Below are positions 2,500 through 20,003 of a DNA stretch of 64,000 nt, in pieces. This stretch comes from a plasmid. The stretch lies in the NCBI RefSeq assembly GCF_054482525.1, contig NZ_JBTHVG010000004.1. One strand, 5' to 3'. Both the position numbers and the translations under genes were made by a program. The notes beneath the pieces are model-generated. The model saw nothing but the letters and a program-made list of their open reading frames with translations. It had not been told where the DNA came from and made no database searches. The first letter of the stretch is position 1. Each line of letters starts with the position of its first letter.

Positions 2500-2890
2500 T
2501 CGTTCCAGGGGTGGTCTGGAGATCATGCGGTGTGCTCCCTGCTCTCGCCGGAATAAGGACGTCGCCGCCGGCTCCGCTTTTACCCGGCCATGCGGGGCAT
2601 GGCCTTGTGGGTTTTCAGTTATGTGGCCTCAGCGTCGTGTGCGGGCTGTGCCGTGCCTCCATCGTAGCCGGGCTTCTGCGGGCGGGTTGCAAGGTAAGGT
2701 GAACCGCTGCGGTCACCCGGTCCCTCCTTCCCGTCCGCCGTGATTTTCCGGTCGTTCACCCGCTCAGATTTCGCGGTCTCACCCTCCAACTCCCGCCAGC
2801 CGTGTGCGTCAGGCTGCGGCTTCCCTTGCGCCCTTGCAACCCTGCAGGCCCGGCAAAGATGGAGGCACGGCACCGCCCGGTGTCGCAGAA
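2500..2890 (+). promoter_or_regulatory. GC-rich, hairpin-rich non-coding element upstream of ardA; candidate single-strand DNA promoter (ssi/Frpo-type)
   Basis: About 390 bp of non-coding sequence at >65% GC, full of short inverted repeats. It lies directly 5' of ardA, which in ColIb-P9 is known to be expressed early from a single-strand promoter. The secondary structure was not folded here. Confidence 0.4.
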
Positions 2891-2914
2891 CATGTGACTA
2901 TGGAGGATTCGGGA

Positions 2915-3415
2915 ATGTCTGTTGTTGCACCTGCTGTATACGTTGGAACCTGGCACAAATACAACTGTGGAAGCATCGCCGGACGCTGGTTTGACCTGAC
3001 CACGTTTGATGATGAGCGCGACTTTTTCGCCGCCTGCCGTGCTCTTCACCAGGATGAAGCCGATCCTGAACTGATGTTTCAGGATTATGAGGGATTCCCG
3101 GGGAATATGGCCTCTGAATGCCATATCAACTGGGCCTGGGTTGAAGGCTTCCGCCAGGCACGGGATGAAGGCTGCGAAGAGGCTTATCGTCTCTGGGTGG
3201 AGGATACCGGTGAGACGGATTTTGACACCTTCCGCGATGCCTGGTGGGGCGAGGCTGACAGTGAGGAGGCTTTTGCGGTTGAGTTCGCCAGTGATACCGG
3301 CCTGCTGGCTGACGTGCCGGAGACGGTGGCGCTCTATTTTGACTATGAGGCGTATGCGCGGGATTTATTCCTGGACTCCTTCACCTTTATTGACGGTCAT
3401 GTGTTCCGTCGGTGA
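2915..3415 (+). CDS. ardA: ArdA antirestriction protein (type I restriction inhibitor, DNA mimic), 166 aa
   Basis: MSVVAPAVYVGTWHKYNCGSIAGRWFDLTTFDDERDFF... is the canonical ColIb-P9/R64 ArdA. A GGAGGA ribosome-binding site sits 7 nt upstream of ATG 2915; the longer ORF from 2804 is an upstream extension. Confidence 0.92.
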   Translation: MSVVAPAVYVGTWHKYNCGSIAGRWFDLTTFDDERDFFAACRALHQDEADPELMFQDYEGFPGNMASECHINWAWVEGFRQARDEGCEEAYRLWVEDTGETDFDTFRDAWWGEADSEEAFAVEFASDTGLLADVPETVALYFDYEAYARDLFLDSFTFIDGHVFRR

Positions 3416-3770
3416 TTTACTCCCCCGCTCCGGCGGGGGTATGGCCTGCCAGGCCGCCGGAAAACCCTGGCAGGCTTACGCCTGCCTGAAATGCAGGAGG
3501 GCCGCGCCTGCGGCGCTGCCCTTCCTGCCCGTCATGGTGTGAGGCATTTTTCTGTTATGTCGTTTCTGTTGTTCTGATTTCCGGAGGCGGGGACACCTTC
3601 GGCTCCCGGCTGCCTGGCGGCATCCGGTCGTCAGGCCCGACTCCGACAGGCAGCTGCTGGCGCACCCGCCAGTCTCCGCCGAACCCGCTGGCGCGGTTTC
3701 GGGCTGCCGCTACGGTCCGATGTCTGAAAAACCAGGCTTGCAGCGACCGTTCCGGTCGCGCCGCCCCTGT

Positions 3771-4117
3771 CGCGCCGGAAACGGCGCTCCCTGCACACCT
3801 GACGGTGTGTAAGGCCACTGCGCCTGATGGCGCAGTCAACCCTTCCGCCGCCACCCCTGCGGCCTGTTTCCCGCTGTGGACTTTCCGGGGGCTGGAGTAA
3901 CCACATCCCGTTTCAGCAGTCCAGGGGAAGATATACCGTCCACAAAATTTTTAGCCATAAACCCGGCAAAAAATTTTGCGTCCGCCCCCGGACAGCTGCC
4001 CCGTGACGTGGTGACGGACGCCCCATCGGAAAGGTCCACTGCGGGGAGAAACCCCGAAGAAGTGGACGGCAGAAGGGGCTTTCGCCCCTCCGGGGAGCAA
4101 CCGGTCGGCCCGGCGAC
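3771..4117 (+). promoter_or_regulatory. Frpo/ssi-like single-strand promoter element, repeat copy A (about 85% identical to 6636..6992)
   Basis: GC-rich non-coding block with long imperfect inverted repeats (e.g. ctccctgcacacctgacggtgtgtaagg, ccccgtgacgtggtgacggacgcccc). It ends 25 bp before the ribosome-binding site of ORF 4144, is on the strand expected for leading-strand ssDNA transcription toward oriT, and is repeated at 6636..6992. Confidence 0.5.
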
Positions 4118-4143: not shown

Positions 4144-4578
4144 ATGACTGTCAGCAGCACGATTTCCGTTTTTTGCCGCGACGGGGTGTTCCGTACCGTT
4201 TACTGCCACCTGCACGGTGAGCCGACCTGGAACGGTCGCATCCTGCATACCCACTATGCCACCGGTCAGCAGGCCGAAGCCCTGGTTGAACACGGTGATA
4301 TCCGTTGCCTCGGTCCCCGTTGCGACAAACCCGCCGGGCATACGCTTCAGAACCCGGTGGACGGTGTGACGGCTTATTACGGACGTGACAGTGGTTTCCG
4401 GATGGACAGTGAGGCGCGTGAGTACCGTTCTTTCAGGGAGGCTATTGCCACTGAAAGCACTGAAGAGGTGCGCTTCCATTATGTGTTCATCGACGGCTAC
4501 TGGAAGGTGATGTACCGCACGCCGGAAGGCTGGAAGATGAAAGCGCTCGCGCTGGCACTGCGTCGCTGTCCGAAATGA
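4144..4578 (+). CDS. hypothetical protein (144 aa) directly downstream of Frpo-like element A
   Basis: GAAGGAG ribosome-binding site 8 nt before the ATG. Clean ORF (MTVSSTISVFCRDGVFRTVYCHLHGEPTWNG...) with no motif I can name. Confidence 0.6.
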   Translation: MTVSSTISVFCRDGVFRTVYCHLHGEPTWNGRILHTHYATGQQAEALVEHGDIRCLGPRCDKPAGHTLQNPVDGVTAYYGRDSGFRMDSEAREYRSFREAIATESTEEVRFHYVFIDGYWKVMYRTPEGWKMKALALALRRCPK

Positions 4579-4670
4579 AAAAAGGCAGGGCGATAAACCC
4601 TGCCTCTCTCCGCCGGCGCTTCCCCGCCAGGAAGTCCGGCATCTCAATCACTATCTATGGAGATTATGCC

Positions 4671-4937
4671 ATGAGACCATCAATTATCTTCGCAACCGCC
4701 GAGTATGTAAAGCGTCTGCGTGAAGAGTGCCTGCGGGAGAATAAACCCCTGCACCGCCATACCCGCTTCAGACGTCAGGAGCTGGCACAGGATGAGATTA
4801 ACCCGGACGTCCTGGCGATGAGCGGCCATATCGCCAGACGCTGCAGTGAGCAGAAGCGGGTGCGTATCCCCGCTATGAAAGTCAGCGAATGGGGCCACCT
4901 GCTCCGCGCGCTTGAAATTGAGCGGGTCTGCCACTGA
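4671..4937 (+). CDS. hypothetical small protein (88 aa)
   Basis: GGAG ribosome-binding site before ATG 4671 (MRPSIIFATAEYVKRLREECL...). The longer ORF from 4575 lacks a ribosome-binding site. Confidence 0.5.
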   Translation: MRPSIIFATAEYVKRLREECLRENKPLHRHTRFRRQELAQDEINPDVLAMSGHIARRCSEQKRVRIPAMKVSEWGHLLRALEIERVCH

Positions 4938-5001
4938 TTAACCCTTGCCGTCTGCCTGTGCAGGCGGCAGGATACGTTCAGACATCTCACCAGGAGGAAC
5001 C

Positions 5002-5892
5002 GTGAGTAAGAAGAAAACCACCACGACGCCCACGCCGCATGATGCCGCGTTCCGGTCGTTCCTGGCGAATCCCGACGTCGCCAGAGATTTTCTGGAACTG
5101 CATCTTCCGGCGGAGTACCGGCAGTTGTGCGACCTGTCCACGCTGAAGCTGGAACCCGCCACCTTTGTTGAGCCGGACCTGCATCAGTACGCCAGCGATA
5201 TCCTCTGGAGTGTGAAAACCACCGGGGGTGAAGACGGCTATGTTTATACGCTCATCGAGCACCAGAGCACCGAAAATCTGTACATGCCTTTCCGCATGTT
5301 ACGTTACAGTGTGGCGGCGATGCAGAGACATCTGGAGCAGCACAAAACGTTGCCACTGGTGATTCCTGTGCTGTTCTATCATGGTGAGCGCAGCCCGTAC
5401 CCGTACAGCATGAACTGGCTGGACTGTTTTGAGAATCCGGCACTTGCGGCTAAAATATACACAAAGCCGTTTCCGCTGGTTGATATCACTGTCGTTGATG
5501 ACAATGAAATCATGAACCATCGCCGGATGGCCGCACTGACGCTGCTGATGAAGCATATCCGCCATCGTGACATGATGGATCTGCTGGACAAACTCCCGCA
5601 GGTCATGGTGGAAATTTCAGACGAGCAGGTGCGTGTTCTGATTCATTACATCGTTAACGCAGGGGACTCTGTATCACCGGAATTTATGCGGGCGCTGGCT
5701 GAGCGTCTGCCGCAGCATGAGGATAAACTGATGACTATCGCAGAACGTCTTGAGCAAAAAGGTCGCCAGGAAGGAGCGCTTGAAAAAGCCCTGGCTATTG
5801 CGTGCCAGCTTCAGAAAATGGGGATGACGCCGGAGCAGATTAAGCAGGCTACCGGACTTTCCGAAGCTGAACTGAAAAAAATCATTCACTGA
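5002..5892 (+). CDS. Rpn-family recombination-promoting nuclease (YhgA-like, PD-(D/E)XK, 'transposase_31' family), 296 aa
   Basis: An AGGAGG ribosome-binding site precedes a GTG start at 5002. The N-terminus (TPHDAAFRSFLANPDVARDFLELHLP), the ...EHQS... core and the C-terminal helical tail (ERLEQKGRQEG...MGMTPEQIKQATGLSEAELKKI) are characteristic of E. coli RpnA-E. Confidence 0.8.
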   Translation: MSKKKTTTTPTPHDAAFRSFLANPDVARDFLELHLPAEYRQLCDLSTLKLEPATFVEPDLHQYASDILWSVKTTGGEDGYVYTLIEHQSTENLYMPFRMLRYSVAAMQRHLEQHKTLPLVIPVLFYHGERSPYPYSMNWLDCFENPALAAKIYTKPFPLVDITVVDDNEIMNHRRMAALTLLMKHIRHRDMMDLLDKLPQVMVEISDEQVRVLIHYIVNAGDSVSPEFMRALAERLPQHEDKLMTIAERLEQKGRQEGALEKALAIACQLQKMGMTPEQIKQATGLSEAELKKIIH

Positions 5893-17248: not shown

Positions 17249-17419
17249 ATAAAAGGATTGTTGCAGATACGAAAGTCGTTAGAATAGCCGCGGACGCTTG
17301 AGGCTGTATGCCGAAAGCGTTTTGTGGATGGTATACAGCAGAAAGCCCCCTGGAGATTTTTTATCAATCAACCAGGGGCTCTACTGTAATGCCTAGACAA
17401 CATTATAGTAGCCTGATAA
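17249..17419 (+). repeat. 171-bp direct repeat R1, a copy of the pnd (hok/sok-type) leader containing a truncated pndC start
   Basis: About 95% identical to 18670..18840. It contains the gta-atg-cct...cattatagtagc pndC start, but the frame ends after 12 codons (MPRQHYSSLII*) and no pndA follows. Confidence 0.8.
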
Positions 17420-17461
17420 TTTAGATATGTGTACATCCTACCGGAAAAGATACTTTTCAGG

Positions 17462-18553
17462 TCATTTATCAATGGGTGTTATTACCACCGGTAGTTTGTT
17501 TACGTCTTCTAAATTAACTGGTACCGGAGGTAACCATATTAATCTAGGTTTACGCTCATGGGCTAGTTCTGGTTTCTTACTTCCTGTCCAGTATGTATGC
17601 CAGTGTCCCCGGCGTATATGAGGACGTTTGCTACCTATTGTTGTCCGCTCTTTCCCTGTGGGTTCTGCTTGGCGATATTGCCGTATGGCTTGCCCCATTC
17701 GAATACCAACGTCCCACTCCCGAATGTTTTGTGCTGGTAGTTCATGGTGAGTGTGAACATGCTTTTTGTGCTTTTCTGACCGTTTAAATTGATTTTTTTC
17801 TTTTATATCATTGATCTGTGAACAGATATAAAGCACCATTGATATCTGTGCGTTAAGAAGATTAAACTCCCTGTCTCTGAAATCTTTGAGCTTTTCGTTA
17901 ACTGTTACGACGACTTCACCATCGATACACTCCATCTTTCTGGAGTCAAGAAGTCCTTCACGAGAGTCCTTTATTCTGATGATATTATTGACGACGTCAA
18001 CATCCTTTTCTTTTAGCCCTGTAGTTCCTTGACTTTGTTTCAGATCATCAATAATGAAAAGCCGGATAATATTTCCATTATTGTCCAAAAATGGATAAAA
18101 GAAAAATCCATGTATCGGATAGGACGTAGGAAGTATAGTATGCAGATTTTCGGCTGAAACATAGATACTCCATGAAGGGAGTTCCTTGAGGATCTGTGCA
18201 GGAATGTTATCAACATAGGTGTTAGCCACATCACTGATGATGTCCTCGCTTAGGCGATAAATTTTCTTTGTATAGCGCCAGTATATAAAACACAAAATAC
18301 TGTGTGGTGACGATAATTCGTTTCCATGAAATAAAGATTCTAGTTTAGAAGCCAGTTCTTCATTTTTTTGTTGGCTCTGGAGACGACTCATTAGTATGCG
18401 TTCTTCATCTTTTCTGTCGATAAATAATAATGGATTGTCGCTGCGTTTTTTATTTCGGCATGCAAAGATTTGCTCTTCAAGCCCAGGGATTGTGTTGATG
18501 ACTTTTTTTATCTTTTTCAGGAAAATAGGTTGTTTTAACTGCGACATTTCCAT
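17462..18553 (-). CDS. hypothetical protein (363 aa), AT-rich cargo inserted between duplicated pnd leader copies
   Basis: About 33% GC, a clean ORF with no family I can name. The C-terminus carries RPHIRRGHWHTYWTG (an H-hydrophobic-H pattern) and PRLIWLPP. It is divergent from pndA. Confidence 0.6.
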   Translation of the reverse strand: MEMSQLKQPIFLKKIKKVINTIPGLEEQIFACRNKKRSDNPLLFIDRKDEERILMSRLQSQQKNEELASKLESLFHGNELSSPHSILCFIYWRYTKKIYRLSEDIISDVANTYVDNIPAQILKELPSWSIYVSAENLHTILPTSYPIHGFFFYPFLDNNGNIIRLFIIDDLKQSQGTTGLKEKDVDVVNNIIRIKDSREGLLDSRKMECIDGEVVVTVNEKLKDFRDREFNLLNAQISMVLYICSQINDIKEKNQFKRSEKHKKHVHTHHELPAQNIREWDVGIRMGQAIRQYRQAEPTGKERTTIGSKRPHIRRGHWHTYWTGSKKPELAHERKPRLIWLPPVPVNLEDVNKLPVVITPIDK

Positions 18554-18669
18554 CTCCTAAGGGGATTCTTTTATTAACTAAAATCAGCATAACATGCGTT
18601 GTTGTGAAGTAGAGAACCATGTATTGGGTTGGTTGTTAACTTCAAAAACAACGCTGAATCATTCAAATA

Positions 18670-18840
18670 ATAAAAGGATTGTTACAGATACGAAAGTCGT
18701 TAGAATAGCTGCGGGCGCTTGAGGCTGTATGCCGAAAGCGTTTTGTGGACGGTATACAGCAGAAAGCCCCTGGAGATTTTTTTATCAATCAACCAAGGGC
18801 TCTACTGTAATGCCTCAACAACATTATAGTAGCCCGATAA
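18670..18840 (+). repeat. 171-bp direct repeat R2 (the intact pnd leader)
   Basis: Partner of R1; continues into the intact pndC/pndA. Confidence 0.8.
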
Positions 18841-19013
18841 CCGCCGGAAGGCAATGGAGGGGCTATGATGCCACAGCGAACGTTTTTAATGATGTTAATC
18901 GTCGTCTGTGTGACGATTCTGTGTTTTGTCTGGATGGTGAGGGATTCGCTTTGCGGACTCCGGCTCCAGCAGGGAAACACAGTGCTTGTGGCAACGTTAG
19001 CCTACGAAGTTAA
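18810..19013 (+). CDS. pndC: PndC (mok-like overlapping reading frame required for pndA translation)
   Basis: An ORF overlapping pndA in another frame and starting inside the leader, as in hok/mok loci. Confidence 0.45.
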   Translation: MPQQHYSSPITAGRQWRGYDATANVFNDVNRRLCDDSVFCLDGEGFALRTPAPAGKHSACGNVSLRS

Positions 19014-19020
19014 ACGTTAA
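18868..19020 (+). CDS. pndA: PndA, Hok/Gef-family membrane toxin (50 aa)
   Basis: MPQRTFLMMLIVVCVTILCFVWMVRDSLCGLRLQQGNTVLVATLAYEVKR is essentially the R64/R483 PndA sequence. Confidence 0.88.
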   Translation: MPQRTFLMMLIVVCVTILCFVWMVRDSLCGLRLQQGNTVLVATLAYEVKR

Positions 19021-19091
19021 CGGGCAACACGGCGGCAGGTTTTCTGCCGCCGCTTTGTTGCGAAGGCTGACCTCATTGCGCCCTTTCTTCT

Positions 19092-19343
19092 TCAATGAAG
19101 CGTATCTGGTATTGTTTCATTTTCCCTGAAGCCGATTAGCTCCAGCCGAATGCCTTTGCCATCGGGGGCCACGTTCTGCATTTCGCAGATACCACGTCGG
19201 GTCATGAGTGTGAAGGCTGTCATTGCCAGCATGGCTAACGCGTTTTCCTCGCTTCCGCTGCGTTTCTCGAGAGCATCGGCAATTTCTTCTATGCTCCCCA
19301 CCTGAAAGCAAGAGTCGAATTCTTTACTCCACTTTTCTGACAT
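19092..19343 (-). CDS. hypothetical protein (83 aa)
   Basis: Weak GAGAG ribosome-binding site; no recognisable motif. Confidence 0.35.
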   Translation of the reverse strand: MSEKWSKEFDSCFQVGSIEEIADALEKRSGSEENALAMLAMTAFTLMTRRGICEMQNVAPDGKGIRLELIGFRENETIPDTLH

Positions 19344-19495
19344 CGGATTTTCTCTCTGTATTTATGGGTAGTTATCGAACTGAATGTGCCAGTTTTTTCA
19401 GGAGACGGCAAAGTTGAGATGATTGGTTCTGATTCAAAGCATGAGTTTCCCCGGTGTGACGGGCATGTCGGGCGGATTTTGAGAAACAACAGATG

Positions 19496-19528
19496 TAAAA
19501 AAACCGACTGGTGAGGTCGGTTTTTTTA
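19496..19528. terminator. bidirectional rho-independent terminator
   Basis: aaaaaaaccgac-tggtga-ggtcggttttttt. Confidence 0.6.
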
Positions 19529-19551
19529 CTGTTCCGTTACAGAGTGGGTGG

Positions 19552-19773
19552 CTCTGGTCGGAAAAGAACTGTCTATAACTGACTTGTAGATAGTACGTCT
19601 GGAATTATATTTCTGCAAGTACTGGATAAGTGTATACTCGGCATGTCAGCTCTGAGGCATGTTCTGTCCGACATATTGTTCAGCGGGAAGAACAGGTTGC
19701 AAGTCCTGGCCAAAACATCAGGTGGTGCTGGTTTTGGTGCTCTGGTCGGAGAAGAACTGTCTATAACTGACAC
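19552..19773 (+). repeat. two 32-bp direct repeats (19552..19583 and 19742..19773) in the leader of a small-ORF region
   Basis: ctctggtcggaaaagaactgtctataactgac versus ctctggtcggagaagaactgtctataactgac. Confidence 0.7.
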
Positions 19774-19830: not shown

Positions 19831-19938
19831 GATGGAGAAGCGGATGATTAATCTGTTAATCATCGTTCTCAGGGCAGTAGTTGCCGTTGCAAACGCGCTG
19901 ATTGCTGTTCTGGAACTGATCCGGGAACTTATCGACTG
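19831..19938 (+). CDS. possible small hydrophobic peptide (35 aa, or 31 aa from the second ATG)
   Basis: MEKRMINLLIIVLRAVVAVANALIAVLELIRELID is a single transmembrane helix. It is followed by the hairpin gggcaggga...tcctgccc at 19960..19989. The ribosome-binding site is weak. Confidence 0.25.
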
Positions 19939-20003
19939 ATAAGCCTGGAAACGTAACTAAGGGCAGGGAGTTACCGCTTCCTGCCCTTTAACAAAAAGAG
20001 ATC

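Follow-up and report, generated by a model that had tools for sequence, protein, structure and literature searches.

What is a low-GC gene doing inside a duplicated piece of the pnd post-segregational killing locus, and is the toxin-less half of that duplication still of any use to its plasmid? The question arises from a window of 64,000 nucleotides (nt) of plasmid DNA (NCBI RefSeq assembly GCF_054482525.1, contig NZ_JBTHVG010000004.1). The window is an IncI1-type conjugative plasmid, and the gene, finQ, lies in a cassette between trbA and pnd. We read the parts of this locus as FinQ, a fertility inhibitor belonging to the AcrVA2 family, brought in by a single ancestral insertion that is flanked by a toxin-less copy of the 5' region of pnd, and we put the probability of this identification at roughly 80%. 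Much of it is already known: FinQ since 1989, the insertion with a 173-bp duplication since 2021, and the kinship of FinQ to AcrVA2 from work of 2018-2023. What we add is that the duplicated DNA comprises a promoter and an antisense-RNA gene, and that the toxin-less copy, judging from its sequence, still looks able to make an antitoxin RNA.

The gene order is trbC-trbB-trbA, left repeat, finQ, pnd, a conserved open reading frame (ORF) of 83 amino acids (aa), dqlB/AgrB, excA and traY. A repeat search of the window returned direct repeats at 17249-17419 and 18670-18840, each of 171 nt and 1421 nt apart from start to start. Their identity is 92% in an ungapped alignment and 94.2% when one gap is allowed, and their longest perfect match is 34 nt; the earlier note, written from the sequence of the window, had this pair right but put its identity at about 95%. 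The same note's low-GC segment of 1250 bp, bracketed by the repeats and carrying one long minus-strand ORF, is what we observe. The cargo and its junctions are as follows.

17420 to 18669: cargo between the repeats, 1250 bp, 38.5% GC (49.1% in the whole window)
17419/17420: junction J1, between left repeat and cargo
18669/18670: junction J2, between cargo and right repeat
17462 to 18553, minus strand: finQ as the longest ORF, 363 aa
17462 to 18547, minus strand: finQ as the likely coding sequence, 361 aa from the second ATG

Many IncI1-type plasmids of E. coli, Salmonella and Shigella match the region at 100% identity. Coverage of at least 80% is reached in 387 complete plasmid records, and 277 records show identity of at least 99%. 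The structure is shared by these 387 complete plasmids and by metagenome contigs, which excludes the assembly artefact that had been named as a way for the repeats to be spurious. About 20% of the plasmids having this pnd region carry the finQ cassette and the remainder show the exact empty site, for which plasmid R64 (NC_005014) served as our reference. The insertion and its flanking duplication were published in 2021 (BMC Microbiol; PMC8004404) under the name "RD1", described as a 1250-bp insert encoding a 361-aa FinQ after the 173-bp trbA-pndA intergenic sequence of R64, with that sequence duplicated.

The cargo gene and its protein family

The only long ORF of the cargo is finQ. The earlier note could name no family for its 363-aa product, which is FinQ, the IncI1 fertility inhibitor, a member of the AcrVA2 family (PF26125). 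RefSeq gives the product of the window's ORF as "protein FinQ", and the cluster of 100%-identical proteins to which it belongs has 829 member sequences, is named finQ and is tagged PF26125 (AcrVA2-like). Identity to UniProt FINQ_ECOLX is 83% over 99% of the query, and all 27 FinQ homologues that we found have the precomputed PF26125 tag. When PDB sequences were searched with phmmer, AcrVA2 (7CI1) was the sole match (E 3.9e-17, covering FinQ residues 85-160 and 232-347). An AlphaFold (AF2) model of FinQ, with a predicted local distance difference test score (pLDDT) of 77.9 and a predicted template-modelling score (pTM) of 0.80, agrees: Foldseek against PDB matched it to 7CI2 chain A (E 1.9e-11, probability 1.0, template-modelling scores 0.48/0.54, 360 columns), and besides AcrVA2 returned nothing with E below 0.4. 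A scan of FinQ against NCBIfam gave no match. Phage homologues exist as well, since phrog_6160 matches FinQ with E 9.6e-48.

A pairwise alignment shows the core KRPHIRRGHWHxYWxG to be identical in FinQ and AcrVA2 (7CI1). Within it, H312, R314 and H317 of FinQ are invariant in an alignment of 21 homologues and correspond to H286, R288 and H291 of AcrVA2, mutation of which abolishes activity (bioRxiv 10.1101/2022.11.29.518452). The triplet H317-W318-H319, which had been called HUH-like, sits inside this motif. An HUH endonuclease (Rep, relaxase or IS200/IS605 TnpA) was considered and rejected: no Pfam or NCBIfam match was obtained, the fold fits AcrVA2 only, and the triplet is part of the AcrVA2 motif.

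The second ATG, at 18547, is a likelier start for finQ than that at 18553, because AGGAG lies 6 nt upstream of it and because the homologues and PMC8004404 also give 361 aa. The 116 nt preceding the gene yielded no identifiable promoter of finQ's own. In RefSeq, FinQ is often given as a 259-aa protein from an internal start (locus L001 in our numbering, 4563-5342, equivalent to 17462-18241 of the window), despite an intact frame of 361/363 aa. In pCMY42-like IncI-gamma/K1 plasmids (L003, L019; about 150 plasmid records), an ISEcp1-blaCMY-blc-sugE module splits finQ near codon 115, leaving a FinQ remnant from about residue 115 to the C-terminus beside trbA. We infer that the 259-aa annotation is linked to the short product of this split gene.

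Two copies of the pnd leader and their origin

The right-hand repeat is the 5' part of a complete pnd locus, 98.7% identical to that of R64, with the following features.

18670 to 18840, plus strand: right repeat, 5' part of the intact pnd locus (Rfam sok, RF01794, at 18713-18870)
18679 to 18684 (-35, TTGTTA) and 18701 to 18706 (-10, TAGAAT), plus strand: pnd promoter, mRNA start near 18713
18810 to 19013, plus strand: pndC, the mok-like frame overlapping pndA, starting at an internal Met of the ORF 18729-19013 by alignment to R64
18865 to 19020, plus strand: pndA, Hok/Gef toxin of 51 aa (RefSeq start 18868; PF01848, E 2.9e-12; NCBIfam Hok matches)
19030 to 19052, plus strand: strong intrinsic terminator of the pnd mRNA
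18755 to 18819, minus strand: predicted cognate PndB antisense RNA with 5' tail GUUGAGGCAU, based on fold and homology to the sok promoter
18831 to 18826 (-10, TACTAT) and 18854 to 18849 (-35, TTGCCT, outside the repeat), minus strand: predicted PndB promoter

The Rfam match here scores 132.8 bits (gathering score 59). That the downstream repeat runs on into intact pndC and pndA had been noticed from the sequence and is borne out by the PF01848 match and the pndC ATG at 18810. The -35 of the mRNA promoter has an A at 18684 (TTGTTA) where the left copy has a G at 17263 (TTGTTG), the A being one step nearer the consensus. TTGTTA is found in every right-hand pnd copy beside finQ and also beside cargo of the type in locus L005, and may either mark a lineage or tune the amount of toxin mRNA.

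When set against the empty site of R64, the repeat extends from about 9 nt before the pnd mRNA -35 into codon 10 of pndC. The left copy contains the following.

17249 to 17419, plus strand: left repeat, toxin-less pnd 5' region by alignment to the R64 empty site (Rfam sok, RF01794, at 17292-17449)
17258 to 17263 (-35, TTGTTG) and 17280 to 17285 (-10, TAGAAT), plus strand: pnd promoter, mRNA start near 17292
17389 (ATG) to 17422-17424 (stop), plus strand: truncated pndC of 11 codons, MPRQHYSSLII
17334 to 17398, minus strand: predicted antisense RNA of the PndB type (orphan, about 65 nt), with a free 10-nt 5' tail, GUCUAGGCAU, and a long hairpin
17410 to 17405 (-10, TACTAT) and 17433 to 17428 (substitute -35, TACACA, from the cargo; 17-nt spacer, 4/6 matches), minus strand: predicted PndB promoter

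The leader of the left repeat is 128 nt long. Its Rfam match, at 84.6 bits, is above the gathering score of 59, and the alignment fails past about position 125 of the model. No Hok-like ORF was found between 17419 and finQ, so that the earlier description of a retained leader ending in a truncated pndC without a toxin holds good. The expectation that the antisense region is retained too holds for the PndB body and its -10 but not for the native -35, which lies outside the repeat. Both predicted 65-nt PndB RNAs have the same shape, a 10-nt free tail and a long hairpin, with fold energies of -28.2 kcal/mol (z -4.2) on the left and -29.2 kcal/mol (z -5.2) on the right; two positions of the tail differ, and the differences in the stem preserve pairing. 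The left copy keeps an intact pnd promoter, its leader, and a structurally intact PndB-like antisense gene reading in the direction of finQ, and because promoter and antisense gene are retained it is probably still transcribed on both strands. The two genes share the minus strand, and finQ transcripts may end at the PndB hairpin, since no minus-strand terminator was detected between the finQ stop and that hairpin.

How the duplication came about can be approached through its junctions. For this we compared 19 leader copies in one alignment, drawn from the window, from R64 and from eleven further plasmids, and also scanned metagenome contigs. Both J1 (..GCCTGATAA to its left and TTTAGATATG to its right) and J2 (..TTCAAATA and ATAAAAGG) are identical in all finQ-bearing sequences sampled, which comprise IncI1 and IncI-gamma/K1 plasmids and metagenome contigs, suggesting one ancestral event. 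A T five nt before J1 is common to all left copies, and an A in the -35 of pnd to all right copies. Inside the left copy the mosaic of variants changes from plasmid to plasmid, so the copies go on recombining with other pnd alleles. The position of J2, about 8-10 nt before the -35, is where at least five upstream contexts, unrelated to one another, break off, and J2 is therefore the ordinary left edge of a pnd cassette.

Relatives of finQ, at 77% amino-acid identity, occur in DUF2913-finQ modules on other plasmids, and one is in a chromosomal island of Kosakonia. Homology of their DNA to the cargo is confined to the coding sequence and the 56 nt before its ATG. Whether such homologues also adjoin hok/sok loci had been raised earlier; no hok-type leader lies beside them in the Kosakonia, Serratia, Enterobacter and Salmonella Rubislaw loci examined.

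We propose that finQ derives from a module of the DUF2913-finQ type in another enterobacterial element and was placed immediately before a complete pnd cassette, J2 being that cassette's normal left edge. A single illegitimate joint, J1, in codon 10 of pndC, would then have linked this finQ-pnd block to a resident pnd locus, with homologous recombination in or beyond pnd closing the other side. The outcome would be the 171-nt direct duplication with the toxin lost from the left copy, and the copies would later have been reshuffled by recombination with other pnd alleles. We consider the exact order of these recombination events about equally likely to be right or wrong.

Several points weigh against our reading of the locus. 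The order of events is not reconstructable from present sequences; we found no plasmid with finQ-pnd that is without the left copy, and no intact pnd locus with the left-copy allele among 1888 matching plasmids (chimeric query; best 97.3%). The family assignment of FinQ rests on the precomputed tag, the PDB sequence match and the fold match, as a local Pfam scan gave no match, the local copy of Pfam being assumed to be without the PF26125 model. FinQ and AcrVA2 are only about 20% identical and differ in the N-terminal region, and the mechanism discussed below for FinQ is borrowed from AcrVA2. The ends of PndB are set by homology to Sok of R1; the substitute -35 of the left copy matches at only 4/6 positions; and a consensus promoter scan flags neither PndB promoter nor the left pnd promoter, the promoter assignments being based on homology to hok/sok.

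The best of the alternatives is an integration of Campbell type, in which a circle of 1421 bp holding a pnd leader and finQ entered by a single crossover in the resident leader, making the cassette a RecA-dependent mobile one, able to loop out and re-integrate. The pattern of single-nucleotide differences fits, in that the T marks left copies, the A right copies and the interior is mosaic, and so do the identical junctions of finQ on IncI1 and IncI-gamma/K1 backbones and its presence in about one-fifth of the plasmids with the pnd region, the others having exact empty sites. However, the model needs a pre-existing circle that already had J1 and J2, and so fails to account for how the two junctions arose. 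In addition, J2 coincides with the ordinary left edge of pnd in unrelated contexts, the A variant also occurs beside other cargo (the L005 type) and is not a marker of a finQ circle, and the longest perfect identity, at 34 nt, is near the lower limit for efficient RecA recombination. We regard this route as possible but doubtful. The earlier note's homologous exchange at a hok-family leader stands to the extent that recombination there is probable, given the lack of transposase and inverted repeats and the differing alleles; its Campbell-type form presupposes both junctions.

A possible second antitoxin

The six nt after the pndC ATG (17392-17397 in the left copy, 18813-18818 in the right) pair with the predicted 5' tail of PndB. 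There are at least five alleles of this hexamer in loci L002-L081, CCTAGA, CTTCGA, CATGAA, CCTCAA and CATCGA, within pnd leaders that are conserved elsewhere, and all five occur in intact pnd loci. Few columns of the transcribed leader vary as much as its three variable positions, a contrast that is partly by construction because the flanks of the hexamer were fixed by the search pattern. In hok/sok systems the tail of the antisense RNA is the end that initiates target recognition, as known from the work of the Gerdes laboratory. The sequence variation suggests that the hexamer alleles are specificity groups of pnd.

Orphan left copies carry CCTCAA, CATGAA or CCTAGA. The left and right hexamers differ in six of the seven plasmids or contigs with both copies read, which is not above chance, as about 63% is expected from the allele frequencies and the seven cases are not independent lineages. 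Curing experiments are relevant here: pndB supplied from a toxin-deleted IncI1 plasmid suffices for the curing of IncI1 plasmids (PMC5330492). The same paper states that all IncI1 pndB sequences are identical, a claim that the hexamer variation would qualify, provided that the 5' end of PndB lies where homology places it.

It is thus conceivable that the left copy is functional, supplying a second PndB antitoxin RNA with a different tail that neutralises the PndA of rival IncI-complex plasmids with that allele (anti-addiction), and that it might also end the finQ transcript. The orphan PndB keeps its -10, its hairpin and its free tail, with pairing preserved across the stem differences; the hexamer is highly variable, and every allele of the orphan copies is also found in intact pnd loci. 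The 6/7 difference between left and right hexamers, the sufficiency of toxin-free pndB for curing (PMC5330492) and the lack of a detected minus-strand terminator between finQ and the hairpin point the same way. Several of these arguments are weakened on inspection, since 6/7 does not exceed the expectation, the lineages are not independent, and the variability of the hexamer owes something to the search pattern. Furthermore, the native -35 is lost, the lineage of L003 and L019 has a change in the -10 from TACTAT to TACTGT, and complementary leader RNA from the same copy could titrate the orphan antisense RNA. We consider a functional left copy unlikely. The broader proposal, that the toxin-less copy and the similar orphan leader fragments in IncI-complex plasmids are a working second antitoxin gene, shielding the host when the plasmid displaces an IncI rival, is one that we would advance only as a long shot.

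If it were true, the trbA-pnd slot would combine finQ, as a weapon aimed at F plasmids, with an antidote to the pnd systems of rivals, and specificity groups within a type I toxin-antitoxin family would be set by the variable hexamer. As the duplicated DNA is a promoter and an antisense-RNA gene rather than neutral spacer, an additional PndB-type RNA of different specificity may be produced by about one in five of the plasmids that have this pnd region. This would bear on pnd-based plasmid curing, which assumed an identical pndB throughout IncI1 (PMC5330492). In the library searched, we came across neither a paper on orphan antisense genes of hok/sok type directed at rival plasmids nor a natural orphan Sok/PndB-type RNA in that role.

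The trbA-pnd slot is modular, with other cargo genes and toxin-less leader fragments in related plasmids. L005 (CP088354.1), which stands for one group of plasmids, has a 317-aa protein with a FitA-like ribbon-helix-helix N-terminus at 1774-2727, and at 2918-2999 a PndB-only leader fragment with hexamer CGTGAA. In pRK1 of E. coli W (L008; NC_017637.1), an unrelated 302-aa ORF (2818-3726) lies between leader fragments at 2649-2791 and 3839-3882, which represent leader positions 1-141 and 5-48; pndCA is deleted and there is no toxin. The 302-aa protein gave no matches, and neither this protein nor the cargo protein of L005 has a PADLOC match. In many IncI-complex plasmids a further pnd-like leader, the third, follows pnd at a distance of about 968 nt (L004 2640-2784, L006 1084-1228 and 21 metagenome loci). 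It is about 79% identical and almost always has hexamer CCTAGA, no Hok ORF follows it, and it runs into an AgrB-like terminator. This leader is absent from the window, where dqlB/AgrB lies in its position.

The window's dqlB/AgrB is a neighbouring second type I toxin-antitoxin module, consisting of an AgrB-family RNA (Rfam 53.7 bits, gathering score 40) and a DinQ-like toxin gene, dqlB. A 33-nt direct repeat (19551-19583 and 19739-19771, 97% identical) sets AgrB antisense to the dqlB mRNA region, as in dinQ/agrB. Directly downstream of pnd, the 83-aa ORF is conserved in every IncI plasmid examined, and neither Pfam nor NCBIfam matches it.

19092 to 19343, minus strand: 83-aa ORF
19495 to 19582, minus strand, and 19844 to 19939, plus strand: dqlB/AgrB module

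FinQ action and likeness to known systems

FinQ inhibits F-plasmid transfer, lowering F tra transcripts, according to Ham & Skurray (1989) as cited in PMC8744291. The link between FinQ and AcrVA2 was published by Marino et al., and a later preprint (bioRxiv 10.1101/2022.11.29.518452) names FinQ as an AcrVA2 homologue, noting its reported association with reduced F tra transcripts. The preprint proposes that the family shares one strategy with different targets, in which recognition of a nascent polypeptide leads to loss of its mRNA; such translation-dependent loss is demonstrated there for AcrVA2 and Cas12a only. By analogy, FinQ would recognise the nascent polypeptide of its target protein and trigger loss of that mRNA through the H312-x-R314...H317 site. 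We consider this the most likely mechanism for FinQ, at something like even odds. FinQ is a good system for asking whether the AcrVA2 mechanism serves conflict between plasmids, with H312, R314 and H317 as the clear motif residues to start from.

The earlier note had suggested a defence or abortive-infection gene. If FinQ were an anti-phage protein of this kind, with the effect on F transfer secondary, the low GC of finQ and its place as an accessory gene in a variable part of the plasmid would make sense, as would the neighbours of its Kosakonia homologue, which in a chromosomal island adjoins an integrase and a TIR-domain gene. There is also a weak PADLOC match to PDC-S02. That match is the only one, however, and it is marginal (E 0.0086, 14.7 bits, residues 248-309, about 60 residues). 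The one characterised member of the family is an anti-defence protein, homologues of FinQ occur in phages (phrog_6160), IncI1 plasmids with only this region left the Salmonella phage type unchanged (PMC8004404), and the documented phenotype is inhibition of F transfer. We therefore think a defence function very improbable.

Two observations on the surroundings of finQ relatives may be recorded here. The DUF2913-finQ gene pair is conserved on IncF-type and other plasmids (L012-L014). In the Kosakonia sp. chromosome (CP025697.1; L009 2956-5086), the TIR-domain gene beside the finQ homologue is of CAP12-PCTIR type, and the integrase-bounded island also has a CbtA toxin gene.

Last and weakest is the idea that the 171-bp repeat is the target-site duplication of a transposition-like insertion, or else an artefact of assembly, which we give next to no chance: direct repeats do flank a foreign segment and a short GATAA stands at both ends of the duplicated stretch, but the cargo, whose only long ORF is finQ, has no transposase, recombinase or terminal inverted repeats, the copies are about 8% diverged and carry different natural pnd alleles, 171 bp far exceeds any target duplication known to us, and hundreds of independent complete assemblies show the same structure, as do metagenome contigs.

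Returning to FinQ, the AcrVA2 homologue in a pnd-flanked cassette, its closest described counterpart is FinQ of the IncI1 plasmid R820a (Ham & Skurray 1989; FINQ_ECOLX), the same gene in the same IncI plasmid family. The 1989 entry has 342 aa and differs from the window's FinQ at 17% of aligned positions, which might stem from a distinct allele or from errors in the older sequence. AcrVA2 of Moraxella bovoculi (7CI1/7CI2; PF26125) is of the same family and has the same overall fold and an identical core motif, and both proteins lower the mRNA of a competitor's genes. The N-terminal region of AcrVA2 holds its target-binding part, and it is here that FinQ diverges. Hosts of FinQ are without Cas12a, the target of AcrVA2, whereas the reported targets of FinQ are F-plasmid transfer genes.

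The structure of the locus is the same as that of RD1 (PMC8004404). That paper treats the duplicated stretch as plain intergenic DNA, whereas here it is the pnd promoter, leader and PndB gene, in copies with different alleles. Set beside pnd of R483 and R64 and hok/sok of R1, the right locus is likewise complete, with promoter, leader, pndC, pndA, PndB and terminator. The left copy, in contrast, lacks the toxin, the 3' fold-back element and the native antisense -35, and is an orphan fragment rather than a toxin-antitoxin system. Orphan antitoxins can act as anti-addiction modules, as chromosomal ccd does against the ccd of F; the natural examples known to us are protein antitoxins. An antitoxin that lacks its toxin, as in the toxin-deleted IncI1 "interference" plasmids (PMC5330492) and possibly in the left copy, could counter the killing that a competitor imposes through a related system.

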